From contig JAFPXD010000062.1 of the NCBI GenBank assembly GCA_017394835.1, positions 11,369 to 75,368 on the forward strand: a stretch of DNA of 64,000 bases, in the 5' to 3' direction. The notes under the pieces were generated by a model. It was not told the origin of the DNA. It saw only the letters and a list, made by a program, of their open reading frames with translations, and did no database searches. How positions within the stretch are numbered: the first letter of the stretch is position 1; the number at the start of each line of letters is the position of its first letter. Of this stretch, positions 1 to 16,401 are shown piece after piece. The stretch is from Clostridia bacterium. Its GTDB lineage: Bacteria; Bacillota; Clostridia; Christensenellales; CAG-138. A program made the translations under genes and the position numbers.

Positions 1-1055
1 GTAATAACCGCACCGGCTGCATATTCAGCGGTAGTATAGACTTCTCCGTTGATTGTGAAGGTTACCGTATAAAGCTCAACCTCAGGGATTATAACCGCAC
101 CGTCGGTCTCATCATGCGGGAGCTGAATTACGTTTCCGCTAAGCTCATCATATGTGAACTGATCTATCGTCAACGTAAGCGGTATAGTCGTGCCCGGTTC
201 AACATCAGCCGAAACATGGAATGTAATCGTGAAGACAGTTCCGGTCGAGCTGAACTCGCCATCAGGAACAATTGCCATGAAGCCTATCCTGCCTGCAGTG
301 CCGGTGTTCTGCTGCACCATGCCGTCAACATCAAGAATGTCGTACCAGACTTCACCTTTCTTCAGGCTGCCTTTATTGGTGAGCTTCTCTGCATCATAAT
401 CGACAAAAACTGTCAAGGCGGTAGCGGCATACTCGCCATCCATTCTCAGAGAAATGCTGACATCGGAATCAGGCTCCGCCTCGACAGTGTCCAGAACGAA
501 TTCAACCGCATTAGGTTCAGGTGTAGGTGTACCGGGAATAATAACCGCACCGTTTTCTGCTGTATTAGGAAGCTGTATGACGTTACCGCTGAGCTCATCA
601 TAAGTGAACTGGTCGATAGTCAACGTAAGCGGTATGGTCGTGCCGGGCTCGACATCTGCAGAGACATGGAAGTTAATTGTGAACACAGTTCCGGTAGAAC
701 TGAACTCACCATCCGGCACAATCGCCATGAAGCCGATCCTGCCGGCGGTTCCGGTGTTCTGCTGCACCATGCCGTCAACATCGAGTATGTCATACCAAAC
801 ATCACCCTTTTTAAGGCTGCCCTTATTAGTAAGCATCGTAGGATCATAATCGACGAAGACCGTCAATGCTGTTGCAGCGTATTCGCCTTCCATTGTCAGT
901 GAAACGCTGACGTCGGTGTCTGGTTCCGCTTCGACACTGCTAAGTGCAAAAGTCACGGTGCCCCGATGGTTTCTTTCTGTCAAAGCCGAAACAGGCATAG
1001 CCACAACAGACAGAACCATCATCAGCACTACCAGAGCAGAAATGAACCTTTTCAT
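1..1055 (-). CDS. Secreted protein with two tandem cohesin-like domains followed by an InlB-B/Flg_new-like repeat; runs off the left edge
   Basis: Not in the ORF track (no stop in window). ATG at 1055 with RBS AGGAGG (cctcct at 1061-1066). Translation MKRFISALVVLMMVLSVVAMPVSA (signal peptide), then two ~150-aa units with the cohesin pattern VEAEPDxDVSxSL...DYD...GTVFTIxFHV..PGTTIPLTL, then YTVTFTINGEVYTT. Confidence 0.8.
   Translation of the reverse strand, partial: MKRFISALVVLMMVLSVVAMPVSALTERNHRGTVTFALSSVEAEPDTDVSVSLTMEGEYAATALTVFVDYDPTMLTNKGSLKKGDVWYDILDVDGMVQQNTGTAGRIGFMAIVPDGEFSSTGTVFTINFHVSADVEPGTTIPLTLTIDQFTYDELSGNVIQLPNTAENGAVIIPGTPTPEPNAVEFVLDTVEAEPDSDVSISLRMDGEYAATALTVFVDYDAEKLTNKGSLKKGEVWYDILDVDGMVQQNTGTAGRIGFMAIVPDGEFSSTGTVFTITFHVSADVEPGTTIPLTLTIDQFTYDELSGNVIQLPHDETDGAVIIPEVELYTVTFTINGEVYTTAEYAAGAVI
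88..945 (-). repeat. Two 450-bp direct repeats encoding the cohesin-like domains
   Basis: For example gccgtcaacatc occurs at 321 and 771 (offset 450); long near-identical stretches. Confidence 0.9.
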
Positions 1056-1305
1056 AATGTCCTCCTGATTTGTGTGAAAGATTATCGGGATACTCAACTG
1101 CTCCAAGCAGTCCATAGAAACATTTTTCAGCAAATACTGGCTGAATGTTATTAACTTGTTTGCTGCAAAATGTTATTAAGACTGATGAAAGCATGTTTAT
1201 GCATACACCCCGACGACTGTATACATAAGGTCATGCGTATCCAAATAGTGTGAGACGCATCCTCACATGCAGAAAAATCTATTTGGAGACATTGTACTGT
1301 CAAAT

Positions 1306-1334
1306 GTTGGCTTTTCGTTGAGTTGAGAAATCAA
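1306..1334 (+). repeat. Left inverted repeat (IRL, 29 bp) of the invertible segment
   Basis: gttggcttttcgttgagttgagaaatcaa is the exact reverse complement of 2778-2806. Confidence 0.95.
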
Positions 1335-1364
1335 CGGGTAGCGACCAACACTCAACTTACGGAT

Positions 1365-1393
1365 ATTATACTAAAAGAGCAGACTATTTTCAA
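1365..1393 (-). promoter_or_regulatory. Sigma70-type promoter inside the invertible segment, pointing out through IRL toward the cohesin gene
   Basis: Minus strand TTGAAA (1393-1388), 17-bp spacer, TATAAT (1370-1365). Confidence 0.75.
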
Positions 1394-1590
1394 GGAAAAT
1401 GGATAATGATTTTATGGACAAAACCGATATATTATTGACGAATGTGAAAAAGAATCCGCTGCTATCTCCTGTACGGCGACTATTCGCAGTCAAATACGTA
1501 GTCTTTGGCTTCCTATGTATTAGAATCAGTTGAGGTCAATTGCTTTGACCTCAAAAAACAGAGCTGACAGAATAGCGAAAGGAGCGCAAA

Positions 1591-2706
1591 ATGGCTCGAA
1601 AAGGCGAAAACATTTTTAAACGGAAGGATGGTCGTTGGGAGGCACGTTATGAAAAAGGACGCGATCTGAACGGCAGAATCATTTATGGCTATTGCTATGC
1701 CGCAACATACCGAGATGCTCGACAAAAGGTTAACTCGCTTAAAGTGGCTGTTGCAAATGGGCAGGCTACAGAAAAGAGCAGCACCAAGACATACTTCAGC
1801 AATTATTGTGATGAATGGCTCCGTGAAAAGAGCACTTATGTTAAACAATCGACTTTTGTGAAGTACAACAGTGTAGTTGAGAACCATATCATGCCAGAGC
1901 TTGGAAACTATAGGCTCTCCGCTATAAACAGCGAGACTTGCTGTAGGCTCAAAGATAAGCTTGTCTCCTCCGGTCACTCACCTAAAATGGTCCGTGATGT
2001 TATTACGGTTCTTCGATCCATCCTTAAGTACGTGCATAAAACGAACCCCTCATTTCAATGTGAGGTGGATATTCCACTGCCGAAGGAGCAGCGAAAAGAA
2101 ATGCGCGTCCTTTCACTCGAGGAGGAAATAAAGTTTATAAGCTTCCTGTCAGATGAAATGGATAACTGCAAGCTTGGAATACTGATCGCCATAATGACAG
2201 GCATGAGAATTGGTGAGATCTGCGCGTTAAAATGGGGCGCAGTCTCTTTCGCTGATGAATCGGTAAAGGTTGTATCGACAATGCAGAGGCTGAAATGCTT
2301 TGGTGGCAATACTTCCGCGAAAACTGCAGTTGTAGTAGGCATGCCCAAAAGCCAGACATCTTCAAGGACGATTCCTCTTACTGCAGAGTGCGTCGCTCTC
2401 TGTAAAAAGATGCGAAGCGACAACCCCGACGCCTTTATCCTAACAGGAACAACGGACTATATGGAGCCAAGAGCATTACAGTATCGTATGAGTAAGTACA
2501 CGAAAGAATGCGGACTGTGCGGCGTGCACTTTCACACATTGAGGCATACCTTCGCGACAAGAGCAGTTGAAGTTGGCTTTGAGATCAAGAGTCTCAGCGA
2601 GATCCTAGGACACGCCAACACGACTGTCACTATGGACAGATATGTTCATTCTTCCATGTTGCTAAAGCGGCAAAACATGGAGAAAATGCCCGCTCTTATT
2701 GTATAA
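1591..2706 (+). CDS. Tyrosine recombinase/integrase (candidate invertase)
   Basis: TGMRIGE, HTLRH, ILGH, DRY catalytic motifs; N-terminal KRKDGRWEARY arm-binding-like segment; RBS AGGAG. Confidence 0.92.
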   Translation: MARKGENIFKRKDGRWEARYEKGRDLNGRIIYGYCYAATYRDARQKVNSLKVAVANGQATEKSSTKTYFSNYCDEWLREKSTYVKQSTFVKYNSVVENHIMPELGNYRLSAINSETCCRLKDKLVSSGHSPKMVRDVITVLRSILKYVHKTNPSFQCEVDIPLPKEQRKEMRVLSLEEEIKFISFLSDEMDNCKLGILIAIMTGMRIGEICALKWGAVSFADESVKVVSTMQRLKCFGGNTSAKTAVVVGMPKSQTSSRTIPLTAECVALCKKMRSDNPDAFILTGTTDYMEPRALQYRMSKYTKECGLCGVHFHTLRHTFATRAVEVGFEIKSLSEILGHANTTVTMDRYVHSSMLLKRQNMEKMPALIV

Positions 2707-2777
2707 ATTCGCAGTCGGATTTTCTGGTCAGTCCTTTGATTTGTCCAGCATTTCTCTGTTCTTTTCAATTCAACAAA

Positions 2778-2806
2778 TTGATTTCTCAACTCAACGAAAA
2801 GCCAAC
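2778..2806 (-). repeat. Right inverted repeat (IRR, 29 bp)
   Basis: ttgatttctcaactcaacgaaaagccaac; the match extends by about 5 bp with one indel. Confidence 0.95.
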
Positions 2807-2811
2807 CATTT

Positions 2812-2839
2812 AGGGCACGTTTGCAACGTGCTCTTTTTT
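2812..2839 (+). terminator. Intrinsic terminator immediately outside IRR
   Basis: Stem AGGGCACGTT / AACGTGCTCT with a 3-nt loop, followed by a T-tract. Confidence 0.75.
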
Positions 2840-2962
2840 GCCCTCAGCATGACTTCCACGGAAAGGAGTATAATGCTGTTGTGTTTTGTTGTTGAGGATG
2901 TCGATAAAAAAGTTCCCAAGCTGAATGAGGCTTGAGAACGGATGTCCTTTAATCAGAATGGT

Positions 2963-4912
2963 TTATGTGATCGATTCATCCCCACTTTTGCTTAATAGTC
3001 TGGCAAACCCGTTTTGAGTCATTATATCATTTGCCCTTTCTACGGATAAATCTTTGGTTTCAAAAAGCATAGCGTGAAACAACCTATCCTCTGCTATATC
3101 CCTAAACGCAAGCCCGGCAATTCTGACGAGCTCTTCTCCAATATCTGCTCTTACGTCAAGAGCTATGCATAACGCAATAATGTGTGTAAGCGTGACCTTA
3201 CCTTTGCACCACTTCTGCATTGCAGAACGGGATATGCCGATCCGCCATGCAAGCTCATCCTGAGAAATACCCTTGGCGTCAAGAATGAACTGTACAGCCT
3301 TATAGAATGTATTAGGCAATTCCTTTTTCAGCCTGTCCCAAAGCATAGCGTCTTCCTGAAATTGCTTGTTTTGCAACATGCGCTCTTTTGTGTCCGGCTC
3401 GGAGTTGAAATTATGCCGCGTCTGATACTTATCTTTGACTTCCGTCTTCCTTGCTGCAATTCCCTTTGAATAGTCGGCTTTTGCATATCGGCCATATGCA
3501 GAAAAAGAAATGCAGCACTCGTCGATATGCGTTCTCGCATACTCTGTCAGCCGCTTGCTCCTGCCCGTGTCGGAGACATATTCGGGGCTGTTGAGGCAAT
3601 AGTGACCCTCGACATACGAATAGCATCCGCTGTGTAGCGCGTCATTGAAATCATCAGACCGATTCAGCAGAGCCGCCGCTTCCATGCGGGATATGCTGTA
3701 CGTGATGCCTTCCTCCCATTTATCGGAGCAGCCGTAGTCGGGGATCCTTTTACCATCAACGTAACAATAGACTCCCTCAGCTTCGGGAAAGCCGAGCTCG
3801 ATCATCCTGTATTTTGCCATCGAGCGGGAAACGCCGAACTTCTCGGCAAGCTTCTCCACAATACGCATGACGTTTTCGGCCGACCTGTCCCACCGACAAT
3901 CATCATATAGGTCCTCGATATAACGCCGTGTATTCGTCTCCTCCATGAGGATGTATGCGGGGAGCTTCTCCGCCTGCAGCTCCATCCACTCGACGGGGCT
4001 GTTTGTTCTCACATACTTTCGTGGTGACAAAGATCTGCCCATGCAGGCTTTATACGGCTCGCAGCTGAGCGACTGCAGCATGAAAAATCGATAGTCGAGG
4101 TAGGCATGCACGCACTCGTGCACGACGGTACTGTTTTTCATTTCGGGCGTCGGGCAGAGATCGGTATTGAGCAGTATTGTTAGCGGCGTCACATCGAGCG
4201 CTTTGAAACGGTCGTTGTCGTCTAAAACGGTGACTGTGGCTCTTGAAAAGTAGATCAGGCCTCTTACGTCGCTGCCCTTCGGGAGCCTTACGTGCTTTAC
4301 CTTCAGCTTCATCCTGTGAGCAAGCTCTATTCCGTCTATCGCTGTAGGCTCGTCAAGAGCTTCCGGATAATAGGTCTTCAGCATCCTGTATGCCGTATCG
4401 GGATAATCATCCTCGTACATGATGGGCAGCAGATACCCGTTAACGCGAGGCCTACCGCAGTTTGATGCCGACGCGGCAGCGCATATACTCGGAGCGCTGC
4501 ATTTTTTCCCTATAACATCGATAAGGTAGTTCATGTTGAAGGGGCGGATATAGTCAATACGTCTGCCATTGGCGTCCGCTCTCACTGTCCCGATGATAAC
4601 GAGCTCTATCGCCATATGCCGAATATCGCTGTCATACACATCGGCGACGCGAGGTTCTCCAATACGAACGAGCCTAAGGTTCTGCGCCTCCTTGTTTCCG
4701 ATGGCGGTCTTAACGTCATCGGGATATGCACGCACGTACATATCGAGCGCGGCTTTGAAATCCTCATTAAACAATTCTCTCAATATCTCGACCGCAGAGA
4801 ACGGTCCCTTCCTGTTTCGGAGGGAGTTCTGTTCCTTGGCTGTGTAAAAGGGCATGCAGCACGGAACGCTGCCGTGTCCCGTCTTCGTCATCGCATATTC
4901 ATAGCTTCTCAT
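2963..4912 (-). CDS. ImmA/IrrE-family Zn-metallopeptidase domain protein with C-terminal XRE HTH
   Basis: VHECVH (HExxH) plus downstream ELQAEKL and AEKFGVSRSMAKYRM; C-terminal ISQDELAWRIGISRSAMQKW HTH. Start chosen at the ATG after AAGGAGG. Confidence 0.75.
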   Translation of the reverse strand: MRSYEYAMTKTGHGSVPCCMPFYTAKEQNSLRNRKGPFSAVEILRELFNEDFKAALDMYVRAYPDDVKTAIGNKEAQNLRLVRIGEPRVADVYDSDIRHMAIELVIIGTVRADANGRRIDYIRPFNMNYLIDVIGKKCSAPSICAAASASNCGRPRVNGYLLPIMYEDDYPDTAYRMLKTYYPEALDEPTAIDGIELAHRMKLKVKHVRLPKGSDVRGLIYFSRATVTVLDDNDRFKALDVTPLTILLNTDLCPTPEMKNSTVVHECVHAYLDYRFFMLQSLSCEPYKACMGRSLSPRKYVRTNSPVEWMELQAEKLPAYILMEETNTRRYIEDLYDDCRWDRSAENVMRIVEKLAEKFGVSRSMAKYRMIELGFPEAEGVYCYVDGKRIPDYGCSDKWEEGITYSISRMEAAALLNRSDDFNDALHSGCYSYVEGHYCLNSPEYVSDTGRSKRLTEYARTHIDECCISFSAYGRYAKADYSKGIAARKTEVKDKYQTRHNFNSEPDTKERMLQNKQFQEDAMLWDRLKKELPNTFYKAVQFILDAKGISQDELAWRIGISRSAMQKWCKGKVTLTHIIALCIALDVRADIGEELVRIAGLAFRDIAEDRLFHAMLFETKDLSVERANDIMTQNGFARLLSKSGDESIT

Positions 4913-5009
4913 ACGGCGTTCCTCCTTAGGTCTCGTATCGTGGCACCGATTATACACCGCCGAAAACACGATTGCAAGAAAAAATTGTAACTATTTTTGC
5001 AAATACCTC

Positions 5010-5039
5010 TTGCATCGCCAAATATGCTTGTGCTATAAT
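5010..5039 (+). promoter_or_regulatory. Sigma70 promoter of the repressor/mutagenesis operon, with an upstream palindrome (about 4972-5002) as possible operator
   Basis: TTGCAT-18-TATAAT with extended TG; TTGCAAGAAAAA...TTTTTGCAA inverted repeat. Confidence 0.6.
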
Positions 5040-5093
5040 GGATGCCATAAGGTATCCGCCCATGGAGTGCGGATAAACAGAGGAGGCGACAAC

Positions 5094-5927
5094 ATGGCCG
5101 AAAAGAATATCGATCAATTGAAATTCGGAAGCGTTTTGAAAAAGCATCGCTCGGAGGCAAAGCTCACTATGGGTGAATTTGCCAAGATGATGAACGTAAC
5201 AAGGAACACAATAATAAATTGGGAGGCGGATAAGTCCAAGCCCGACTATCGATATATCCCCGAGATCTGCGCCTTATTGGGCATCAAGCTCCATGAGCTT
5301 TTCGGCATGGAGCCCGAGAACGGACTTGATCCCGTTGAGGAGAGGGTACTTAACTTCTTCCGTCAGCTTACCCCCGTAAGCCGCAGGGTCGTCGAAAAGA
5401 TGATCTACGCCATGCTCAACGAGGAGATCGCTCAAAAGGACAGGCAAATGAAATCCACATTCCGCATATTCCTCGTTCGTCCCGGCATGGCGGCAGCGGG
5501 CGTCGGCGATTACGTTCCCGATTCTCCGCCCGAATACACCTTCCTCCGCAAGAATACGGTCAACGACAGAGCTGACGGCATAGTCAAGGTCGACGGCGAC
5601 AGCATGGAGCCTGTTTATCACTCGGGCGATTATGTCTACTACGAGAACGCCGTGTCCGCTTTCCCCGGTGAGGACGTGATTGTCGATACCGACGACGGCG
5701 CGGTCATTAAACGTATGGCGGATGACAACACGCTCTATTCGGTCAATCCCGCTATTCCGTATCCGAAGAAGAACGAGCAGAACACGCTGGTGATAAGGGG
5801 CAGAGTGCTGGGGACGGTGCATTCCTCAGATATGCCCTCCGGCGATGAAGCGGACACGCTTGAGGAGCTGTTCTCCGATGAGATCCGCGAGTTCAACAGG
5901 AAGCACGGCTTGAAGTTCGGAGAGTAA
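5094..5927 (+). CDS. XRE-HTH plus peptidase S24 (LexA/CI-like) repressor
   Basis: N-terminal HTH (VTRNTIINWEADKSKP), AAG cleavage-site motif, VDGDSMEP Ser motif, downstream IKR Lys; RBS AGGAGG. Confidence 0.88.
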   Translation: MAEKNIDQLKFGSVLKKHRSEAKLTMGEFAKMMNVTRNTIINWEADKSKPDYRYIPEICALLGIKLHELFGMEPENGLDPVEERVLNFFRQLTPVSRRVVEKMIYAMLNEEIAQKDRQMKSTFRIFLVRPGMAAAGVGDYVPDSPPEYTFLRKNTVNDRADGIVKVDGDSMEPVYHSGDYVYYENAVSAFPGEDVIVDTDDGAVIKRMADDNTLYSVNPAIPYPKKNEQNTLVIRGRVLGTVHSSDMPSGDEADTLEELFSDEIREFNRKHGLKFGE

Positions 5928-5957
5928 GAAGATTATTTCAGAAGGGAGTTGATCACA

Positions 5958-6263
5958 ATGGCATACGTGAAGCCGCTGCATCCGGAGCGGGTATATGTCA
6001 AGGTCAACTCCGATTTCGATTCGACGGGATACATGCAGCCTCGCTCCATTACATGGAAGGACGGCAGAGTATTCCCCATAGAAGCGGTCAAGGATTTCAG
6101 GCCGGCTTCATCAATAGAGCGCAGTCTCCCCGGGGACTGCTTTACCGTCGTTATCAAGGGCGAGGTCAAATACCTTTTCTTTGAGCGCTGTCAGGATCGC
6201 TTCGCGAGCCATTTCGGAAGATGGTTCGTCGAAAGCATGCGGAGGGACGATCGGAGTGAATAA
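5958..6263 (+). CDS. Small accessory protein of the Firmicute Y-polymerase cassette
   Basis: VYVKV..FD..G.M.P..I.W.DGRVFPI...YLFFE...RWFVE pattern; overlaps the polymerase start. Confidence 0.65.
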   Translation: MAYVKPLHPERVYVKVNSDFDSTGYMQPRSITWKDGRVFPIEAVKDFRPASSIERSLPGDCFTVVIKGEVKYLFFERCQDRFASHFGRWFVESMRRDDRSE

Positions 6264-7881
6264 GGTCTATATAGCGATAGACTTGAAGAGCTTCTATGCC
6301 AGCGTCGAGTGCGCCGACAGGAAGTTCGATCCGCTGGCCACAAATCTTGTTGTGGCGGACCTTTCGCGTACCGAAAAGACCATCTGCCTTGCTGTCTCTC
6401 CCTCGCTCAAAGCCCACGGCATATCCGGCAGAGCGAGGCTTTTTGAAGTGGTCCAACGGGTAAAAGAAGTCAATCAGGAGCGCTTCCGCAAAGCTATTAA
6501 GCTCGGCGTCCTCCCGAAGGACGAAAAGGGACATTATCATTTCGCCTCATCATCATTCGACGCCGAGGCGCTCGAGGAAGATCCGGCGCTTGAGCTCAAT
6601 TACATAGTCGCCCCTCCGCGCATGATGCTGTACGAAAAGGTCAGCACACAGGTCTTCTCCATCTATTCAAAATACATTGCCCCTGAGGACATCCATGTTT
6701 ACAGCATAGACGAGGTGTTCATGGATGTGACCAACTATCTTGCCACATACGCCGTAACTCCGCGGGAGCTTGCCATGCAGATGATCCGAGAGGTGCTTTA
6801 TACGACAGGAATAACAGCTACGGCAGGTATCGGTACGAATATGTATCTTGCAAAGGTCGCCATGGATATAGTCGCAAAGCACGTTCCCGCAGATGAACAG
6901 GGCGTGAGAATAGCGGAGCTTAACGAGCAGACCTACAGGGAATTGCTCTGGTGCCACACCCCGATAACCGATTTCTGGAGAGTGGGTGGCGGCACGGCAC
7001 GCAGGCTTGCCGCTCTTGGCTGCTATACCATGGGTGATATAGCGAGGCTGAGCGTTCATAACGAAGAGGCGCTCTATAAGGCGATGGGAATAAACGCGGA
7101 GCTCCTCATAGACCACGCTTGGGGTTGGGAGCCGACCGATATTGCGACGATAAAGAGCTACACACCGGAAGCGACCTCGCTCTCATCCGGGCAGGTGCTG
7201 AAAGAGCCTTACACCTGTGAGAAGGGTAAGCTCATAACCCGTGAGATGACCGAGCTTTTGGTGCTCGATATGGTCAGGAAAGCCGTCGTCACGAAGCAGG
7301 TCACGCTGACGATAGGCTATGACCGAGAGAGCTTGGAGCAGCGCGGGAAAGGATACATAGTCAAGACCACCGGAAAGCCATATACGGGCAAGGTCTCACC
7401 CGATCTGTACGGCAGACCCCACCCGAACCACGCTCACGGCACAGGCAACCTCGATCATTTCACGAGCTCTACGACAGCGATAATGGACGTCATGATGGCG
7501 CTCTATGACCGCATTGTCGATCCCGATCTGCTCATACGCAGGGTGGGCATTTCAACAGGAGCGCTCATCCCCGAAAACGAGATACCCGCGGAGGCACCGG
7601 AGCAGATGAGCCTCTTCGTCGATTACGAAGCCGTCGATAAGGCAAAAGCCGAAAGAGCCGCAGAGGAGGAAAAGGAGCGCAGGCTGCAAAGGGCTACGCT
7701 TTCATTGCAGGATCGCTTCGGTAAGAACGTGCTGCTCAAAGGAATGAACTTCTTTGAGGGCGGAACGACAAGGGAACGTAACGAGCAGATCGGCGGTCAC
7801 AGAGCCGGGCGCGATGAGATAATGACCGGCAGAACGAAGAAAAAGGATGAACCGCGAAAGGAGGACGCCGAGGATGAGTAA
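6256..7881 (+). CDS. Y-family (UmuC/DinB/ImpB-like) error-prone DNA polymerase
   Basis: YIAIDLKSFYASVE, YSIDEVFMD, TATAGIG, DFWRVG motifs; QMSLF clamp-binding-like motif. Confidence 0.93.
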   Translation: MNKVYIAIDLKSFYASVECADRKFDPLATNLVVADLSRTEKTICLAVSPSLKAHGISGRARLFEVVQRVKEVNQERFRKAIKLGVLPKDEKGHYHFASSSFDAEALEEDPALELNYIVAPPRMMLYEKVSTQVFSIYSKYIAPEDIHVYSIDEVFMDVTNYLATYAVTPRELAMQMIREVLYTTGITATAGIGTNMYLAKVAMDIVAKHVPADEQGVRIAELNEQTYRELLWCHTPITDFWRVGGGTARRLAALGCYTMGDIARLSVHNEEALYKAMGINAELLIDHAWGWEPTDIATIKSYTPEATSLSSGQVLKEPYTCEKGKLITREMTELLVLDMVRKAVVTKQVTLTIGYDRESLEQRGKGYIVKTTGKPYTGKVSPDLYGRPHPNHAHGTGNLDHFTSSTTAIMDVMMALYDRIVDPDLLIRRVGISTGALIPENEIPAEAPEQMSLFVDYEAVDKAKAERAAEEEKERRLQRATLSLQDRFGKNVLLKGMNFFEGGTTRERNEQIGGHRAGRDEIMTGRTKKKDEPRKEDAEDE

Positions 7882-8365
7882 GGGCATTAAGGGAAATGAA
7901 CCAGATCCGCGCATAGTCTATGCGGATATTATAGGCCTTCCGCATTGGCAGTCTCCAACGCGACCGCATATGAGCCTCTATGATCGCTCGGCGCAGTTCG
8001 CGTCATATAAGGCGCTGTCCGGATATGAGGATATGGTAGCTGAGGAAGCCCGGCTCACGGACAGGAAGCTCGAGCTTGAGGATTACGAGCTTGAGCTGCT
8101 CAACCAGAAGCTTTCGCTCGTCAACGATGTTATCGCCGACGGGCATCATCCTGTGCTCACGTTCACCGTTTTCGAGCCGGATGAACTTAAAGAGGGCGGC
8201 AGATACGTCGAGATCACCGATACCGTCAAGCGTATCGACACGACCGGAAGAAAGGTCATCCTCACAAGCACGAGGGAAAGCGGGCTGCACAAGACCATTG
8301 ACTTTGACAGGATCGCCGCGGTCCATGGAGAGCTCGTTGACTATATGGACGACTGTTGGGAATAA
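7874..8365 (+). CDS. YolD-like protein
   Basis: YADII.LPH...RPHMSLYDRSAQFASYKAL motif; follows the Y-polymerase. Confidence 0.8.
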   Translation: MSKGIKGNEPDPRIVYADIIGLPHWQSPTRPHMSLYDRSAQFASYKALSGYEDMVAEEARLTDRKLELEDYELELLNQKLSLVNDVIADGHHPVLTFTVFEPDELKEGGRYVEITDTVKRIDTTGRKVILTSTRESGLHKTIDFDRIAAVHGELVDYMDDCWE

Positions 8366-8456
8366 AGATGAATAATTCAGAGAGCATGACCTCGGCCTTC
8401 CCCTTCAATGGCGGGGCTTTTTCACGTTTAAGGCACACCATCTCCGAAAATGTAAT

Positions 8457-8485
8457 TTGAATACGCCCCTTCTTTATGCTATAAT
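8457..8485 (+). promoter_or_regulatory. Sigma70 promoter for the 8533 and R-M genes
   Basis: TTGAAT-17-TATAAT with extended TG. Confidence 0.7.
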
Positions 8486-8532
8486 CGAATAAAACCTGAC
8501 TAAGGGTTCATATAACCGCCAGGAGGAGCAAA

Positions 8533-8847
8533 ATGGGCGACGTTATTTATCTTAACGAATACAAAAAGCAGCATGGGATCCCACTTCCGCGATCCCCGTA
8601 TTATACGCTGAAAGCTACGGACGCGCAGCTTTATGAGGCTTACCATGCCGCCGCCATGCTTCTTAACGAGTTCAGCGAAAACCATGATAATGCACCGTAT
8701 GCTGTCTTGGTCGGATATGAGAACATAAAGACCGGTCATATCAAACTTTTGAAACAGCCGCCCATGTTTTCCACCAAGGAAGCTTTTGAGTCAATGTCCG
8801 GCATGAGAGGGCATAAAAGCATTGCCGTTGTTCGAAAAGCCGAGTAG
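8533..8847 (+). CDS. Hypothetical protein
   Basis: Strong RBS AGGAGG and upstream promoter; no recognised motif. Confidence 0.65.
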   Translation: MGDVIYLNEYKKQHGIPLPRSPYYTLKATDAQLYEAYHAAAMLLNEFSENHDNAPYAVLVGYENIKTGHIKLLKQPPMFSTKEAFESMSGMRGHKSIAVVRKAE

Positions 8848-8876
8848 AAGTTAAGCTTATTTAGAGGTAATATCGT

Positions 8877-11669
8877 ATGAACGACATTCAGCAAAGAAAA
8901 GCGGCAAAGGATTTTGCAGCAAGATGGAAGGACAAGGGCTACGAGAAGGGCGAGAGCCAGCTTTTCTGGACGACGCTTCTGACCGACGTTTTCGGCGTGA
9001 CGAACGTCGCCGATTTCATCGAATTCGAGGATCAAGTGCATCTCGATCACACCTCGTTCATCGACGGTTACATTCCCTCAACGAAGGTGCTGATCGAGCA
9101 GAAGGGCCTCGGCAAGGACCTCAATAAGCCCATCAAACAGTCCGACGGCTCCATGCTCAACCCCTTCCAGCAGGCAAAACGCTACATAACCGAGCTGCCG
9201 CTGTCCCGCCATCCGCGTTGGGTCGTTACCTGCAACTTCGCGGAATTCTATATCTACGATATGGAGCGCCCGGGCGGCGAGCCGGAGAAGATCAAGCTCT
9301 GCGACCTTGAAAAGGAATACTACCGCCTCTCCTTCCTGACCGAGACCGAGAGCGTGCATATCCAAAGGGAGATGGAGATCTCCATCAAGGCCGGCGAGGT
9401 AGTCGGGCTCCTTTACGATGCATTCTTAAAGCAGTACGGCTCTGCCGACGCCGAAACGCTGAAGAGCCTCAACAAGCTCTGCGTCCGTCTCGTATTCTGC
9501 CTCTATGCGGAGGACGCGGGCATATTCGGCAAGCATTTGATGTTCCACGATTATCTGTCGCAATTCTCAACAAGGGAGATGCGCAAGGGTCTGACCGCCC
9601 TTTTCAAGGTGCTTGACCAGAAGCCCGAGGAGCGCGACCGCTTCCTTGCGGACGACGATCCCTTGCTTGCGGCATTCCCATACGTCAACGGCGGGCTGTT
9701 CGCCGACGAGGATATAATCATTCCCCCGTTCACTGATGAGATACGCGAGCTGCTGCTCGTTAAGGCGAGCGCGGATTTTGACTGGTCGTCCATCAGTCCC
9801 ACCATATTCGGCGCTGTGTTCGAGAGCACCCTGAACCCCGAAACACGCCGCTCCGGCGGCATGCACTATACCTCGATCGAGAACATCCACAAGGTTATCG
9901 ACCCGCTGTTTTTGGACGAGCTCAAGGCAGAGCTTGAGGAGATCTCCGCTATTCAGATAGAAAAGACGAAGACGCGCAAGCTCCGTGAGTTTCAAGCGAA
10001 GCTCGCCTCGCTCGAGTTTTTGGACCCGGCGGCAGGCAGCGGCAATTTCCTCACGGAATCCTATCTCTGCATCCGCAGGCTGGAAAACGACGTGCTCCGT
10101 CTTTTGAGCGGCGGTCAGGTGAAATTGGGCGGCGAGATAATGAGCCCGATACAGGTGAGTATTTCACAGTTCCATGGCATCGAGATAAACGACTTTGCCG
10201 TAACGGTTGCAAAGACCGCGCTTTGGATCGCCGAAAGCCAGATGATGAAGGAGACTGAGGATATCATCTATGCGAACCTCGAGTTCCTGCCCCTGAAAAC
10301 CAACGCAAATATAGTCGAGGGCAACGCCCTGCGGCTCGATTGGAACAAGGTCGTGCCGAAGGAAAGGCTGAATTATATCATGGGGAATCCACCGTTTGTG
10401 GGATCTTCTATCATGGCACAAGGGAGCCCACAAAAAGACGATGTGCATTTTGTTTTCCCCGATCTTGCCAAAAATGAAGTTCAGGATCTGGACTATGTTA
10501 CATGCTGGTATAAACTTGCTGCAGATTATATGCAGGGAAGTCGCATGGAGTGCTGCTTTGTTTCAACAAATTCCATCTGTCAAGGATCGCAGGTCCCTAT
10601 TCTTTGGAACATACTGTTAAATACGTACCAAAACCATATCAATTTTGCGTATCAAACATTCCGTTGGAATAGTGAGTCGGTGAATCAAGCAGCAGTTCAT
10701 TGCGTTATTGTAGGGTTCTCTCCCATTGAGCGAAAAGTTAAGAAGCTGTTTACAAAGGGACAAAGAGGAATAGAAGTACCAAATATCAGCCCTTATCTTA
10801 CTAATGGTTCTGATGTTTTTGTTGTAGCCACTAAGAATCCAATCTGCGACGCTCCTTCAATGAATTTCGGAAACCAGCCTAGGGATGGTGGGTTTCTTGT
10901 TATTCCTGTTGAGGAGAGAGACGAAATCCTCAAGAAAGAGCCCACTTTGGAGAAGTGGATTCGTGAGTATATAGGAGCAGTTGAATTCATCAATAACAAA
11001 AAGCGTTTTTGCCTTTGGCTAAAGCATGCCTCTCCGTCTGATATAAAGGCGAGTAAAATATTGTATTCGAAAGTTGAAGCAGTAAGGGCATTCAGACTGG
11101 ATTCGAGGGCAAAAACGACTAACGGCTATGCAAAAGTGCCACACCTTTTTGCTCAGATAACCCAACCTGAAGGAGTTGACTTTTTGCTCATTCCGCGTGT
11201 GTCATCTGAAAGAAGAAGATACATCCCTATCGGCTTTATGAGCAAAGACATCATTGCTTCTGATGCTGTTCAAATTGTTCCGGATGCATCTTTGTATCAT
11301 TTCGGAATCTTGACATCCAATATTCATATGGCATGGATGAGAACGGTTGCCGGCAGGCTAAAGAGCGACTATCGATATTCAAAGGAGGTAGTGTACAATA
11401 CTTTCCCATGGCCTAATCCGACAGTTGAGCAAAAGGCAAAGATAGAACAGACTGCTCAAATGATACTCGATGCGAGAGCAAAATACCCTGATTCATCACT
11501 TGCGGATCTTTATGATGATAACACTATGCCCAACGAGCTCAGAACCGCACATCAGAAAAACGATCGGGCAGTTTGGGAAGCTTACGGAAAAGCATGGAGC
11601 ATAAGCTCAGAAGCCGACTGCGTCGCAGAGCTCATGAAGCTGTATCAGAAGCTGACCGAGAAGGCATAA
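8877..11669 (+). CDS. MmeI-like type IIL restriction-modification enzyme (endonuclease, m6A methyltransferase and TRD)
   Basis: N-terminal ID...LIEQK nuclease motif, GMHYTS, FLDPAAGSGNF, IMGNPPF, C-terminal GRLKSDYRYS...YNTFPWP; 930 aa. Confidence 0.9.
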   Translation: MNDIQQRKAAKDFAARWKDKGYEKGESQLFWTTLLTDVFGVTNVADFIEFEDQVHLDHTSFIDGYIPSTKVLIEQKGLGKDLNKPIKQSDGSMLNPFQQAKRYITELPLSRHPRWVVTCNFAEFYIYDMERPGGEPEKIKLCDLEKEYYRLSFLTETESVHIQREMEISIKAGEVVGLLYDAFLKQYGSADAETLKSLNKLCVRLVFCLYAEDAGIFGKHLMFHDYLSQFSTREMRKGLTALFKVLDQKPEERDRFLADDDPLLAAFPYVNGGLFADEDIIIPPFTDEIRELLLVKASADFDWSSISPTIFGAVFESTLNPETRRSGGMHYTSIENIHKVIDPLFLDELKAELEEISAIQIEKTKTRKLREFQAKLASLEFLDPAAGSGNFLTESYLCIRRLENDVLRLLSGGQVKLGGEIMSPIQVSISQFHGIEINDFAVTVAKTALWIAESQMMKETEDIIYANLEFLPLKTNANIVEGNALRLDWNKVVPKERLNYIMGNPPFVGSSIMAQGSPQKDDVHFVFPDLAKNEVQDLDYVTCWYKLAADYMQGSRMECCFVSTNSICQGSQVPILWNILLNTYQNHINFAYQTFRWNSESVNQAAVHCVIVGFSPIERKVKKLFTKGQRGIEVPNISPYLTNGSDVFVVATKNPICDAPSMNFGNQPRDGGFLVIPVEERDEILKKEPTLEKWIREYIGAVEFINNKKRFCLWLKHASPSDIKASKILYSKVEAVRAFRLDSRAKTTNGYAKVPHLFAQITQPEGVDFLLIPRVSSERRRYIPIGFMSKDIIASDAVQIVPDASLYHFGILTSNIHMAWMRTVAGRLKSDYRYSKEVVYNTFPWPNPTVEQKAKIEQTAQMILDARAKYPDSSLADLYDDNTMPNELRTAHQKNDRAVWEAYGKAWSISSEADCVAELMKLYQKLTEKA

Positions 11670-11700
11670 ACCCACCGAAAACAACAAATATATTATTTCA

Positions 11701-11732
11701 AACTCGCAACCCACGGGGGTTGCGAGTTTTTT
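11701..11732 (+). terminator. Hairpin terminator after the R-M gene
   Basis: aactcgcaaccc acgg gggttgcgagtt followed by a T-tract. Confidence 0.7.
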
Positions 11733-11989
11733 ATCACATTTTAAACCTAAAAATCAATATATAGTGGCATACGCCTTATTTCTATCTACATCTTGTGCTT
11801 TTGCCCTCAAATTTTCGCAACCCCCGCGGGTTGCGGATTTTTTAGTTTGAATCGTGTATGATACCGCCATCGAAGCACCGCAAGAATCGCATCGACCGAT
11901 CATCGATGGCTCAACGCACCATTGCGGAACTGTGGCAACAAGGGCAGACCATTGAGCAGAACGCCTGGCTATTATGAAAGGATATTGAG

Positions 11990-12571
11990 ATGAGAAGAAA
12001 AAAACGTGAAATGACCCTTGCGGAAGTCGCCAGTGCCTTGGGACATCTATATTTGCTCGATCCCCGTGTTGCAGAATTGGATGCAAAAACACTTGGAGCA
12101 ATGCTGAGGAATGAAAACAATGAGGATGGCCGTTATAGCTTCGACCGCTTCACAAAGGAAGACAAGGCAGCTTATAAAAAGTTCCTTGAAGGTTACCCCT
12201 ATAAAGAGGATTTGAACTCTCTGTTTATCGAATTCAAATATGAAGCGGACAAAGAGCAAAGAAAAGATAAGAAGCACATGGTTGAGCTTTCGGACGAAGA
12301 GATTGAGCTTACGTTTCCTCCTGCACCGAGCTGCGAGGAAGAAGTGTTGGAGAGAGCGTGCATTGCTCGCATTAAAGCACTAATCGACACCATATTGCCC
12401 GACGATCAAGCTTCCCGCATCAAAAGATACTTTTATGAGAAAATGTCCGAAAGGGAAATCGCGGATGAAGACGGAACCTCGAAACAGTCAGTCTCACAAT
12501 CCATTAGAGCGGCAATAAGGAGGTTGAGAAAAGCTCTAAGGGAGGAGGGTTACAATGTTCCGAACACATGA
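11990..12571 (+). CDS. Sigma-70 region-4-like HTH protein of a mobile element
   Basis: C-terminal YFYEKMSEREIADEDGTSKQSVSQSIRAAIRRLRK. Confidence 0.7.
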   Translation: MRRKKREMTLAEVASALGHLYLLDPRVAELDAKTLGAMLRNENNEDGRYSFDRFTKEDKAAYKKFLEGYPYKEDLNSLFIEFKYEADKEQRKDKKHMVELSDEEIELTFPPAPSCEEEVLERACIARIKALIDTILPDDQASRIKRYFYEKMSEREIADEDGTSKQSVSQSIRAAIRRLRKALREEGYNVPNT

Positions 12572-12773
12572 GGAGATCTACGAAGCCCTCCCGCCGGTCC
12601 TAAGGACAAAGGATATTGCAAGCGCTCTCGGTATTTCGGAGGACTTTGCCAGAATCCTCTTCAAGGTCGATTGGGGCTTGAAGACAATTACGAACACCTC
12701 CTTTAAGCTTGTGAGCAGAGAAAGCTTTCTTGCATGGCTTGATTCTCTGGAAGGAGCGTATCGTGACGCCTAG
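12555..12773 (+). CDS. Excisionase-like HTH_17 protein 1
   Basis: LPPVLRTKDIASALGIS...VSRESFLAW; RBS GGAGG. Confidence 0.7.
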   Translation: MFRTHEEIYEALPPVLRTKDIASALGISEDFARILFKVDWGLKTITNTSFKLVSRESFLAWLDSLEGAYRDA

Positions 12774-12999
12774 GATCGTATTATTTGTTTCTGATGTCGC
12801 CGACATCCTCAACATCTCGAAGCGCCTTGCTTATAATCTATTCAAGCAAGCGGACTTCCCCGGCATGAAGATCGGACAATTCTATTGCGTTCGAATGGAT
12901 CGGCTCTACAGTTGGCTGCTAATGAAAACCAAAAAGGAGGTAGAAGATGCGTCGAAGAAGAATAAGCCCTCAAAGGCTGCCCGTCGTACTGACGGTTGA
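12763..12999 (+). CDS. Excisionase-like HTH_17 protein 2
   Basis: VSDVADILNISKRLAYNLF..ADFPGMKIG...W; GTG start after AAGGAG. Confidence 0.7.
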   Translation: MTPRIVLFVSDVADILNISKRLAYNLFKQADFPGMKIGQFYCVRMDRLYSWLLMKTKKEVEDASKKNKPSKAARRTDG

Positions 13000-13162
13000 A
13001 GACATTATGGCGACATTGGGTGTAGGTGCAACCACAGCGAAAAACTTTTTCCATATCGAAGGGTTCCCGAAGTTGGACATAATGAAGCGAAATCTTGTGC
13101 TGAAGGAGAGCTTCTTCAAATGGATGGAAGGGAGAGAGCAGAATGAAACAGGCAAGCGTTAA
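12947..13162 (+). CDS. Excisionase-like HTH_17 protein 3
   Basis: LPVVLTVEDIMATLGVG...GFPKL...KESFFKW; RBS AGGAGG. Confidence 0.7.
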   Translation: MRRRRISPQRLPVVLTVEDIMATLGVGATTAKNFFHIEGFPKLDIMKRNLVLKESFFKWMEGREQNETGKR

Positions 13163-13388
13163 GCGATTAAGGCCTCCGCACGAGCCTAAGCAGTTCACGA
13201 GTTTCGAAGAGATACCCGATTATCTTATGGTCAAGGACGTAGCGGATATTCTCAGGATCTCTGTTGCCTCAGCCTATCACTTGGTAAAGGCGGAAGGATT
13301 TCCGGTACTATTGCTTAACGGGCAGATGCGCGTTGAGAAAGAAGCTTTCATTTCATGGATGCGCGGAAAGGAGCGAAATAATGGCTAA
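13143..13388 (+). CDS. Excisionase-like HTH_17 protein 4
   Basis: IPDYLMVKDVADILRISVASAYHLV..EGFP...VEKEAFISW. Confidence 0.75.
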   Translation: MKQASVKRLRPPHEPKQFTSFEEIPDYLMVKDVADILRISVASAYHLVKAEGFPVLLLNGQMRVEKEAFISWMRGKERNNG

Positions 13389-14535
13389 GCACAAGAAAAG
13401 GGAAGACGGTCTGTACCTCAGGCAGTTTTCAACAGGGAAGAAAGCCGATGGCTCATATATCAGAAAGTCGGTTTACGCGAAAACGCAGAAGGAGCTCGAG
13501 GAAAAGTACTTCGAAGCCATTGAGGGCTATCATCTCGGGTTCAGTCACAATATCGGAAACACTACCTTTGCAAACCTTGCGGAGATCTGGCTCAACAATC
13601 AGGGAGCCGGCATGAGCGAGAAGTGGAATTACCGTCAAAAGCAGGTTATCGACAATCATCTTCTGCCGGCGATAGGTGCAGTAAAGCTCAAGGATCTCAA
13701 GGCGCTTCATCTTCAGGCGATCATAAGCGAAAAGGCGAAGGCAGGACTTGCGACTTCTACGATGAAGCAGATTAAACAGACCGCAACGAGGATCGTAGAA
13801 ATGGCTGTGAACTCCGATCTGCTGCCGAAGAACGTGTTCAGCTGCGTTAAAGTCCCGAAGCTTGAGCCGAAGGAACGTGAAGCACTGGATGAGGAGCAGA
13901 TCAAGATGGTCAACGAAACTTGGGCGACTCACTTTATGGGCTATCCGACTCTGATAATGCTCTACTGCGGGCTTCGCAGAGGTGAGATGCTTGCATTGCA
14001 GTGGAGGGACGTCGATCTTGAGCGAGATGTGATCTGCGTCACAAAGGCTGTTGAGTTTCTCTCAAACCAGACTACGATCAAACCGCCGAAATCCCGTGCC
14101 GGCAAGCGTGAAGTGCCTATTCCTCTCTTTCTCCACAACGTGTTGGAGCAGGTCAAGGGGGATCCGAATGCCGTTGTTTGCCCAAACTCTTCAGGCGGTT
14201 ACATGACGGATTCAGCTTTCAGCAGCGCATGGCATTCCTACATGAATCATCTGAACCTTATATACGGCGGCAAGAATGCCTCTCGATCAAGGCCAAAGGT
14301 CGAGGTCATAAAACAGTTCACCCCGCATATGCTGCGGCATACATACGCGACCATGCTCTATGACGCAGGCGTTGATATAAAGTCTGCACAGAAGTTTCTC
14401 GGACATGCCAACATTGAAATGACACTTTCGGTTTATACCCACCTTACAAAGTTCAAGATCGATGGGGCTATCGAGAGCCTAAATACCCATATTGCTGAAA
14501 TGGGATACAGCGGTTCTGCCGATGATGACGATTGA
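13381..14535 (+). CDS. Tyrosine integrase of the island
   Basis: CGLRRGE, PHMLRHTY, FLGH, VYTH motifs; RBS AAGGAG; close to the tRNA-derived att site. Confidence 0.93.
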   Translation: MAKHKKREDGLYLRQFSTGKKADGSYIRKSVYAKTQKELEEKYFEAIEGYHLGFSHNIGNTTFANLAEIWLNNQGAGMSEKWNYRQKQVIDNHLLPAIGAVKLKDLKALHLQAIISEKAKAGLATSTMKQIKQTATRIVEMAVNSDLLPKNVFSCVKVPKLEPKEREALDEEQIKMVNETWATHFMGYPTLIMLYCGLRRGEMLALQWRDVDLERDVICVTKAVEFLSNQTTIKPPKSRAGKREVPIPLFLHNVLEQVKGDPNAVVCPNSSGGYMTDSAFSSAWHSYMNHLNLIYGGKNASRSRPKVEVIKQFTPHMLRHTYATMLYDAGVDIKSAQKFLGHANIEMTLSVYTHLTKFKIDGAIESLNTHIAEMGYSGSADDDD

Positions 14536-14550
14536 TCACTTGCAGATGAT

Positions 14551-14582
14551 AAAAGCCTTGGTGCATATGCATCGAGGCTTTT
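14551..14582. terminator. Bidirectional terminator
   Basis: aaaagccttggtgc atat gcatcgaggctttt between convergent genes. Confidence 0.7.
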
Positions 14583-14615
14583 GTTATCCATCAGGTATGT
14601 GACGACACGGCGGTC

Positions 14616-15983
14616 TTATGTGCTTTTCTCTATGGCTTCCTCTTCTTCCGGATGGAACGAAGTCATAAACCGCTTCAGCAGGAAGGCGCAGAAATAGGGG
14701 AACGAATACACCTTGTTCGCATGGCCGATATTGCCTTGAGAAAGCTTGATCCCATATAATACATCGGGATATTTTTCCGATGCGATCAGCGTCTGCATCG
14801 ATTTTGCCTTCCCGCTTTTTGCTTTGACTTCAACAGGGATCAGCGAGACTGCGGAACGGATAAAGAAATCCTCTTCCAACGTGGCGTCGGTGCGCTTATA
14901 GTAAAACAGCTTATAACCCTGCTTTATGAGAGCCCCCCCGATCATGTTTTCGCAAAGAGCGCCCTTATATACTCCAAGGTTTTTATTGGCACGAAGATCG
15001 TCCTGAGCCTCATCGTCAAGCATGGAAACAAGCAATCCGGTGTCGGCGAAATAAAGCTTGAACACATCAGGATCAAAATTGCCTCCGAGGGGCAGCTCGG
15101 GGAAATCCATGCAGTAGCATATGTTTACCATGCCTGCGTCCGAAAGCCATTCAGCGCATCCTCGATAGTCACGGAACCTCGCTCCGGGAGCGACCTTCGA
15201 TATCTGGAACTTTTTATTCTCCCTTGCGAGCTGCGGAGCGATCCTGTTGAAAACGTTGATTATCCTTGCCTGATCCACGCCCTCAGCGTATTTGCGGATG
15301 TCCTCCTTGTAGTCGGCTATAAGCTGCCTTTGTACGTCCAGCGAGCCCTCAAAGGTGTTTCGTTTGATATACTCGACCACAACAGCCGGCATGCCCCCGA
15401 GGATACTGAAATCAAAGAACAAGGAATTGAACAACCCCATTTCAAGCTCATTAAACGGGCGAAGCTCACGCATATGCGTCAACAGTTCCTGCACGGTATC
15501 GTCGCCGTACCCTTTGGCCCACAGAAATTCCTCGAAGTCCATCGAGAACATCTCGTAGTCTTTTTTGTATCCTACGCTGTTGCTTTCGATCTTCTTGTAG
15601 TTCACTCCGAGCATAGACCCGCTGCATATTACATCGAACCGCTTGTCTGTGTGGAAGAATTTCAGGGACGCGGCTATCTCCGGAAACTCGGTGATCTCGT
15701 CAAAAAAGATCAGCGTCTTCCCGGGGATGAAGCGCTTTGATGGGTCTAATAGGGAGATGTTTTTGATAATGCTCGGCGCATCATATCCGTCGGCTATTAT
15801 CCCTTTGTACTTTTCGTCCCGAACAAAATTGATCTCGATGATGCTCTGATAATTGGCCGCAGCAAAGTGAAGCACCGATTCGGTCTTGCCGACCTGCCTG
15901 CTGCCTTTGATGATAAGCGGCTTCCTTTCAGGATCCGCCTTCCATTCAGCCAGAAAAGCATCTATCTTTCTTTTCAAGTACAT
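14616..15983 (-). CDS. AAA_14 ATPase with DUF4143 / nuclease-like C-terminus
   Basis: GSRQVGKT Walker A, FFDEI Walker B, GGMP, KLYFADTGLL, PVEVK. Confidence 0.88.
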   Translation of the reverse strand: MYLKRKIDAFLAEWKADPERKPLIIKGSRQVGKTESVLHFAAANYQSIIEINFVRDEKYKGIIADGYDAPSIIKNISLLDPSKRFIPGKTLIFFDEITEFPEIAASLKFFHTDKRFDVICSGSMLGVNYKKIESNSVGYKKDYEMFSMDFEEFLWAKGYGDDTVQELLTHMRELRPFNELEMGLFNSLFFDFSILGGMPAVVVEYIKRNTFEGSLDVQRQLIADYKEDIRKYAEGVDQARIINVFNRIAPQLARENKKFQISKVAPGARFRDYRGCAEWLSDAGMVNICYCMDFPELPLGGNFDPDVFKLYFADTGLLVSMLDDEAQDDLRANKNLGVYKGALCENMIGGALIKQGYKLFYYKRTDATLEEDFFIRSAVSLIPVEVKAKSGKAKSMQTLIASEKYPDVLYGIKLSQGNIGHANKVYSFPYFCAFLLKRFMTSFHPEEEEAIEKST

Positions 15984-16243
15984 CAGAAAGCACCTCCAAT
16001 CGCGCTGCCAATCCTATTATACACATTTTTGAAGCGAAAATCAACTGTTCTTCCACAAAAACGCAGCGAATATGTGGTGGTATTTCACAAAACAAGGTTC
16101 GTGATGCTCGTTCGACTTTTGAAAATCCAAGCCTCTGCTACTGACGATCATCTGTTGATCCGATACGGAACTGCCTCGGCAGTGGCTTGAACATGGCAAT
16201 TTTGACTCTATTCGAACCATGGACCTTCCGCTATGGAAACAAA

Positions 16244-16264
16244 ATTTACTGCATATTTACTGCA
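16244..16264 (+). repeat. Tandem 10-bp direct repeat, putative integrase arm-type sites
   Basis: atttactgca twice at 11-bp period, about 140 bp before the att core. Confidence 0.55.
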
Positions 16265-16401
16265 CAAAATTTTAGAACAAACGGATATGAATCTCGGATT
16301 TTCTGCTTCGATTAGAAAGGGGCCTTTAAAAAAGCCTTATAAATCAAGCATTTTTGAAACGAATCTCGTAAACTCATCCCGCATTATGTTCGATTTCTCC
16401 T

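Follow-up and report, generated by a model that had tools for sequence, protein, structure and literature searches.

A candidate self-contained invertible promoter cassette upstream of a cohesin-dockerin scaffold gene in a Clostridia bacterium

Anatomy of the cassette and its presumed target

The stretch analyzed here, hereafter the window, comprises 64,000 nucleotides (nt) of DNA from a Clostridia bacterium (GenBank assembly GCA_017394835.1, contig JAFPXD010000062.1, positions 11,369 to 75,368 of the forward strand). It carries near its left end a 1.5-kilobase (kb) segment in which two inverted repeats bound a tyrosine recombinase gene together with a predicted promoter directed outward at a gene for a cohesin-dockerin protein. 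An earlier reading of this DNA from its letters alone, referred to below as the original prediction, had proposed that the segment is an invertible promoter switch carrying its own recombinase. The left and right inverted repeats (IRL, 1306-1334, and IRR, 2778-2806, neither of which is assigned a strand) are 29 nt long, 100% complementary and set apart by 1443 nt, with IRR being the exact reverse complement of IRL. Each arm is itself a palindromic core-type site in which the half-sites CGTTGAG and ATCAACG flank a 7-nt spacer, TTGAGAA, and the two sites are inverted relative to each other. No further copy is found in the window at up to 3 mismatches, the whole genome (2.38 megabases in 71 contigs) contains the same two copies only, and none of 100 dinucleotide shuffles of the window gave two matches to the repeat. 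Arm comparison, shuffling and genome-wide count thus all bear out the perfect 29-base-pair (bp) inverted repeats of the original prediction.

The sole long gene between the arms (1591-2706, plus strand) encodes an integrase-type tyrosine recombinase of 371 amino acids (aa), comprising an N-terminal arm-binding-like segment, a SAM-like domain and a catalytic domain; the remaining open reading frames (ORFs) are shorter frames that overlap the recombinase gene. Searches against Pfam returned matches to Phage_integrase (PF00589; 8.1e-24, 84.8 bits at a cut-off of 27.1) and Phage_int_SAM_3 (3.7e-13). The closest solved structure is PDB entry 6en0 ('Int protein'; 8.9e-13, residues 171-367), which we take to be the Tn1549 integrase, and alignment to it reveals that the catalytic residues R206, K253, H315, R318, H341 and Y351 are all present. 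The ORF list and the Pfam matches are thus in line with two further claims, namely that the repeats enclose only a tyrosine recombinase gene and a promoter and that the enzyme is integrase-like. The Pfam scan returned tyrosine-recombinase families only and no Resolvase match, which argues against a serine invertase of the Hin/Gin/Cin/Pin type. The FimB/FimE-type models NF007371 and NF007370 gave no match to the recombinase at E <= 0.001, and a search of NCBIfam yielded no model at its cut-off. Among phage and plasmid records only distant matches were found (below 60% identity, the best at 42% over 99% of the query), either named 'site-specific integrase' or unannotated. Within the genome itself, a second integrase encoded in the adjacent island described below is 26% identical to the cassette enzyme, and two further relatives are 22% identical; the cassette enzyme is thus a single-copy, single-locus recombinase in this genome.

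The predicted outward promoter, P_out (TTGAAA-17-TATAAT; 1365-1393, minus strand), matches the sigma-70-type consensus at 11 of 12 positions and reads leftward through IRL, with the end of its -10 hexamer lying 30 nt inside that repeat. Shuffling the 256-nt stretch that separates the left site from the recombinase start codon yielded a site of that quality 4 times in 2000, and the scan score thus upholds the near-consensus promoter that the original prediction had placed here. The recombinase gene, whose stop codon lies 71 nt from the right site, is itself preceded by a weak, TG-extended candidate promoter (TTGACC-17-CAGAAT; 1545-1573, plus strand; 9/12). The latter is overlapped by a palindrome with an 11+11-nt stem (1531-1555; -16.4 kcal/mol, z = -3.43), which is followed by no T-run on either strand and may serve as an operator for the recombinase gene. 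At the opposite end, 6 nt beyond IRR, a predicted intrinsic terminator (2812-2840, plus strand) features a 10-pair hairpin (2812-2834; folding energy -14.1 kcal/mol, z = -1.96) followed by TTTTTT, as had likewise been anticipated.

On the IRL side, the cohesin gene (5' part at 3-1055 of the window, minus strand; whole gene at 7999-12423 of contig C59) begins 250 nt beyond the repeat, behind an AGGAGG ribosome-binding site at 1066-1061, and is the only gene directed outward next to either repeat. Its 1474-aa product features a signal peptide, two cohesins that both fall within the first 352 aa, many repeats of about 70 aa including Flg_new, and a C-terminal type I dockerin (Dockerin_1, 5.5e-12). 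The combination of cohesins with a C-terminal dockerin points to an adaptor-type scaffold protein, and the domain content of the full-length product agrees with the initial assignment of the left-hand gene as a cohesin scaffold. The predicted 303-nt leader of this gene (1056-1358, minus strand) folds at -90.2 kcal/mol (z = -4.69, equaled by 0 of 100 shuffles); an Rfam scan of positions 1-17500, the leader included, found nothing at gathering score.

Overall, this arrangement suggests that 1306-2806 constitutes a self-contained invertible promoter cassette, to which we assign a rough probability of 0.66. The cassette's own integrase-type tyrosine recombinase would bind both inverted 29-bp core sites, recombine them and thereby flip the 1.5-kb segment. 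In the ON state, which is the one assembled, P_out would read through IRL into the cohesin-dockerin gene, and the terminator at 2812-2840 would also end the recombinase transcript. In the OFF state, P_out would read through IRR into that same terminator and then into a convergent gene. The outcome would be heritable, reversible ON/OFF phase variation of a surface scaffold protein. The geometry on which this rests is as the original prediction had it, with the assembled orientation aiming the promoter at the cohesin gene and the flipped one aiming it at the terminator.

Related cassettes in gut Clostridia

Strong backing for a self-contained invertible promoter switch comes from relatives of the recombinase, 271 of which were found in contigs representing one genome per species and 420 in metagenome contigs; we retained the 80 top-scoring members of either set, or 160 loci. 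The kept relatives are 50-57% identical to the window enzyme over residues 1-371 and are hosted by Lachnospiraceae, Oscillospiraceae and other gut Clostridia, indicating that recombinase-carrying cassettes of this kind are a large family in gut Clostridia. Inverted core-type sites recur in 145 of the 160 loci, 150-330 nt before the start codon and up to 450 nt after the stop codon, the latter distance amounting to 84-207 nt in most of the first 80 loci. The family consensus site, TTTCGCAGAGT-N5-ACTCTGCGA, features palindromic half-sites on either side of a short asymmetric spacer, which is the core layout of tyrosine recombinases, and since exact matches extend through the asymmetric spacer the two sites are truly inverted. 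The window site, TTTCGTTGAGT-TGAGA-AATCAACGG, is similar to this consensus in its layout and T-rich outer flank but not in its half-sites (CGTTGAG as opposed to CGCAGAG), a deviation in keeping with the divergent sites to be expected of a divergent enzyme. In two loci the repeats extend to 73 nt (L021, 3054-3126 and 4551-4623) and 40 nt (L085, 3707-3746 and a partner downstream of the gene) by way of a tandem-duplicated core site.

The outward promoter is similarly recurrent. At a DNA identity of 90% or more the cassettes fall into 82 clusters, and in each of these we searched the first 75 nt inward from either site for promoters scoring at least 9/12. An outward promoter is found inside the start-proximal site in 61 of the 82 clusters, with scores of at least 10/12 in 38 of them, whereas the inward strand at the same position gave 5/82 and the two strands at the other end of the cassette 4/82 and 2/82. 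The mean score of the outward promoter is 9.16 as compared with 7.2 in shuffles, and the median distance between its -10 hexamer and the site is 30 nt (range 8-36), the same as in the window. Because such a promoter would transcribe only about 30 nt and the site itself within the cassette, its function must lie outside. By the limits that we set for family membership in this analysis, the start codon follows its site at a distance of about 200-310 nt, the stop codon precedes the other site by about 70-210 nt, and the -10 hexamer is 20-36 nt inward of the site near the start codon; the window cassette falls within the family by full-length homology, site placement and promoter position alike.

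Comparison of orientation among related genomes, one of the checks that the original prediction had proposed, uncovered both orientations at near-identical loci. In an all-versus-all comparison of loci with co-linear cassettes, 216 pairs feature exchanged and reversed flanks with breakpoints at the repeats, against 511 pairs with co-linear flanks. For instance, a locus from an isolate genome (L031) and one from a metagenome contig (L133) carry cassettes that are 99.87% identical, while their flanks are exchanged: positions 1-3734 of the former correspond to 10928-7195 of the latter at 100%, and 5195-9101 to 5734-1828 at 99.95%. Both states occur in 4 of 18 multi-member clusters (in ratios of 29:7, 5:1, 1:2 and 1:1), and two paralogous loci of a single metagenome-assembled genome (MAG; L029 and L049) are found in opposite states. 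Taken together, these comparisons indicate that the family flips in nature.

The genes next to the related cassettes give an indication of what is being switched. At the 71 loci with canonical repeats among the first 80, the stop-proximal neighbor gene points outward at 51 and inward at 14, and the promoter-proximal neighbor outward at 22 and inward at 39; most assemblies thus hold the promoter facing away from the outward-directed gene. In the largest cluster, the orientation relative to a TetR gene is OFF-like in 28 loci and ON-like in 7. The 73 outward-directed neighbors include TetR (20) and SipW-like signal peptidase (5), and also CpsB, sugar transferases, WecG, pilin-like, VWA and SLH proteins, and are thus for the most part genes for the cell surface or for secretion, together with regulators of such genes. 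Operons of the TetR-SipW-camelysin/TasA-like type are common targets of the family; in two loci viewed in more detail, the TetR and/or SipW gene stands at the head of an operon of camelysin/TasA-like (Peptidase_M73) proteins (L031 5417-8878; L017 5313-8746). The other flank of L031 encodes a MobA/VirD2 relaxase, and that whole locus may be on a mobilizable element.

Possible switching, modulation and mobility of the window copy

To follow the window copy itself, we examined Logan contigs (k = 31) of four runs. The probable source run (X1) yields three contigs (900-1334; 1305-2806, 1502 nt; 2777-9124) that overlap by 30 nt exactly at the repeats. The bases flanking the 29-bp arms differ (T and C at the left, A and C at the right), so that no 30-mer is common to the arms and the 29-bp repeat alone cannot branch a k = 31 graph. 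A single extra k-mer, in which the left flank and the repeat are followed by the far inner base as in a flipped junction, would, we infer, create both breaks. In run X5, from another study, the cassette again forms a separate contig (1310-2802, 3 differences) that is broken at both repeats. These patterns are consistent with inversion of the window copy, which they support only indirectly. Runs X5 and X6, the latter likewise from another study, leave the cohesin flank and 12588-14048 uncovered. An X6 contig that runs from 4010 to 2778 and continues with 240 nt unlike the window, considered as flipped 1335-1574, was not counted, as a separate low-depth contig gives the same depth (bin 900-1386: 0.45 = 52 nt x 4.21 / 487). 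A search of public assemblies found no near-identical copies of the window cassette, the best matches reaching 56% in genome contigs and 57% in metagenome contigs.

Several observations, set out in this paragraph and the next two, weigh against the proposed switch in the window. The breaks in X1 could alternatively stem from a second genomic context of the cassette in the sample or from chimeric reads at the repeats, and the flipped junction of the window copy was not seen among the Logan contigs listed. A check of recorded sequencing runs for this stretch returned 0 RNA runs. Neither Cohesin nor Dockerin is among the families listed for the 73 neighbor genes of the relatives (25 of 26 and 25 of 29 families), which makes the window target unusual for the family. 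Furthermore, the stretch between IRL and the cohesin start codon (1056-1305, minus strand) contains, just outside the cassette, a second promoter-like site (TTGACA-16-TAGATT; 1276-1303, read from 1303 to 1276 on the minus strand) that scores 10/12, and the sole hairpin in this stretch (1145-1126, minus strand; z -0.38, no T-run) is unconvincing as a terminator. The outside site and this weak hairpin, together with the recombinase gene being aimed at the cohesin gene after a flip, suggest that the OFF state may be leaky. Such features would suit a cassette that does flip, and yet only modulates how strongly the cohesin gene is expressed, with transcription sustained by a promoter of the gene's own outside IRL and by read-through from the recombinase gene in the flipped state. 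We consider this unlikely, though worth keeping in view. Sites as good as the outside one arose in 127 of 2000 shuffles (6.4%), its -10 hexamer TAGATT is poor and its spacing is 16, whereas P_out is far stronger on both score and shuffle frequency and the predicted recombinase promoter is weak.

The distribution of the cassette is patchy. It was not found in the 13 other species of the genus (by DNA, and by protein at E <= 1e-70), and a DNA search of 60 relatives matched only short recombinase fragments. Across the taxonomic family, a cassette is carried by only 8 of the 240 genomes, the window genome included. Among the other seven loci of that taxonomic family, repeats of the cassette-family type flank five; another is bounded by a different repeat of 20 nt, and the last is without repeats. 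The recombinase is interrupted by an in-frame stop (TAG and TAA, respectively) in L189 (G117:C7) and L190 (G182:C4), one of which is also without repeats; both are probably decaying, locked cassettes. Such patchiness suggests that the window copy was probably acquired horizontally, possibly together with the DNA to its right, where positions 2963-14535 form an integrative-island-like block. The latter encodes an ImmA/IrrE-type peptidase with a helix-turn-helix (HTH) domain (2963-4969, minus strand, convergent with the cassette recombinase gene), an S24 LexA-like repressor (5010-5927), a Y-family polymerase (6181-7881), a complete MmeI-type restriction-modification enzyme (8877-11669), a sigma-70 region-4 protein (11990-12571) and the second tyrosine integrase (13333-14535). 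Given this distribution and the adjoining island, the cassette may have come to lie upstream of the cohesin gene only recently, with its placement still untuned. The ends of the island were not found, there being no direct repeat longer than 12 nt that links 1056-3000 with 14300-17200. ARAGORN detected no whole tRNA in 1-30000; an apparent 3' half of a tRNA (GGTTCGAATCC T-arm, acceptor end ...GCCA) at about 16390-16440 could be what is left of an att site used by an integrative element.

The same distribution would also fit a reading in which the cassette is chiefly a unit of horizontal transfer, traveling by itself or as one end of the island at 2963-14535, and landed here by chance, with an incidental promoter effect and with inversion rare or lost. 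The cassettes of runs X5 and X6 match that of the window at 99.7-99.8% identity (3 differences in 1493 nt and 1 in 375 nt), as compared with about 92-98% for the adjacent island DNA. Some MAGs hold two to three copies of the family, and mobile-element genes are frequent on the non-target flank, as is the case for the relaxase of L031 and, in the window, for the ImmA/IrrE, S24 peptidase, Y-family polymerase, MmeI and second integrase genes. We nevertheless find this explanation improbable: the cassette is present as a single copy in this genome, with the recombinase frame and the perfect 29-bp repeats intact; its sites are inverted, so that recombination inverts the segment instead of excising it; related cassettes occur in flipped form at the same place and retain both flanks; and the missing direct repeats leave the surroundings of the cassette unconnected to the far end of the island. 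Far less credible still, and already disfavored, is the notion that the enzyme is a plain prophage or integrative-element integrase, with an inverted repeat that is coincidental or att-related and no switching at all. It draws on the closest solved structure being an integrase of the conjugative-transposon type (if 6en0 is indeed that of Tn1549), on public records naming relatives only 'site-specific integrase', and on the adjoining island. The island, however, has its own, divergent integrase, chance would not be expected to produce an inverted repeat of 29 bp without mismatches, and both the recurrence of sites and outward promoters across the family and the observation of both orientations speak against it. 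The cassette enzyme was also considered as the integrase of a larger element with direct-repeat att sites, a candidate rejected on the grounds that the sites on either side are in inverted orientation, with only the gene and a promoter between them.

The invertible promoter cassette thus remains our preferred reading, and it is carried by the anatomy of the locus, by the conservation of sites and promoter across the family and by the presence of both orientations among near-identical relatives. For the window copy, we infer that it would flip at a useful rate, that transcription would start near 1358 and that the cohesin gene would depend on P_out; the assembled locus fits a one-target ON/OFF switch caught in the ON state. 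More speculatively, and with considerable doubt on our part, such cassettes might act as portable plug-in modules, in which enzyme, sites and promoter travel as one 1.5-kb unit from locus to locus and from genome to genome, and whichever gene the unit comes to adjoin is placed under heritable ON/OFF control. Here the unit would have recently captured a cellulosome-type adaptor scaffold, so that some of the enzyme-display architecture of the cell is bet-hedged, for example against phage or host recognition or against the cost of display. The better conservation of the cassette relative to neighboring DNA in the other samples would, under such a scheme, be a trace of this movement.

Downstream of the cohesin gene, at 1868-7912 of contig C59 (minus strand, locus L193), lies a gene for a 2015-aa protein with an M23 peptidase, Flg_new repeats, CHB_HEX_C/Fn3_assoc, one cohesin and a dockerin. 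The two genes are separated by a hairpin without a T-run and may be co-transcribed. The genus features many cohesin genes, of which the best is 51% identical and located in a different gene cluster, and no clean empty-site counterpart of the cohesin locus was found in congeners.

Relation to known systems

A full-text literature search found no description of the cassette family (supplementary tables of inverton surveys, which might list such loci, lie outside its coverage), which in Clostridia is apparently undescribed. It also found no invertible promoter linked to a cohesin or dockerin gene, dockerin and phase variation appearing together only in a general review, in agreement with the original prediction, which knew of no such case for cohesin-dockerin systems. 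Assemblies of this kind (cellulosomes, amylosomes and similar) are usually treated as substrate-regulated machines. Were the proposed switch to operate, clonal cells would differ heritably in the scaffold they display, with possible consequences in the animal gut for the breakdown of fiber, for adhesion and for exposure to phages or the immune system. Searches of the PhaseFinder type set an upper limit on inverton length, and surveys limited to short invertons with the recombinase outside would miss the family. Furthermore, compact orthogonal units of enzyme and sites would be natural candidates for genetic memory parts.

Among known tyrosine recombinases, integrases of the Tn916/Tn1549 conjugative-transposon type are similar to the window enzyme in domain order and catalytic residues and provide its best solved-structure match (6en0). 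These integrases excise and integrate an element between att sites, whereas the window sites are inverted and 1.44 kb from each other, with nothing but the gene for the enzyme and a promoter between them. In the E. coli fimS switch (FimB/FimE) and the C. difficile RecV switches (cwpV, flgB), tyrosine-recombinase inversion of a promoter or leader segment phase-varies a surface structure, as is proposed for the window. The recombinase genes of such switches lie outside segments of about 150-300 bp, and RecV serves several distant switches (PMC5903667). The window enzyme, in contrast, rides within its own 1.5-kb segment and would serve a single locus.

Inverton group 139, from gut Clostridia and specific to Clostridia, has been described together with the tyrosine recombinases (invertase group 35) encoded beside it, and reads show this inverton flipping; the example given has 25-nt repeats about 230 nt apart with the recombinase outside the segment, and invertases near invertons are reported there as generally neither inside nor regulated by them (PMC11892184). 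Nothing further on this point came from PMC11602134 and PMC12823448. Compared by description only, this pair resembles the window in combining a Clostridia invertible promoter with a dedicated neighboring tyrosine recombinase, and differs from it in the short segment and the external position of the enzyme. A further case is a putative fimbrial switch of Providencia stuartii, in which a segment of 844 bp between imperfect 14-bp repeats encloses a recombinase ORF next to a surface-structure operon (PMC5903667). Like the window cassette, it is thus an invertible segment that encloses a recombinase gene beside surface-structure genes; unlike it, and again by description only, it is a single case from a proteobacterium and not a family, with shorter and imperfect repeats.

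The closest parallel in overall design is the Salmonella H segment (hin, hixL/hixR and the fljBA promoter), in which a recombinase gene and an outward promoter share a segment of about 1-1.5 kb between short inverted sites. Hin is a serine recombinase and requires an enhancer as well as Fis. That its gene lies inside its own invertible segment is also stated in PMC5903667. In both the H segment and the window, enzyme and promoter are found inside, and a flip connects or disconnects, or in the window would do so, the promoter and a surface-protein gene. The two share no sequence relationship, the window enzyme being a tyrosine recombinase with palindromic cores around a 7-nt spacer, as opposed to the serine recombinase Hin. 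The self-contained, Hin-like layout is therefore known; what appears new is that it is built here on an integrase-type tyrosine recombinase and placed before a cohesin-dockerin scaffold gene.

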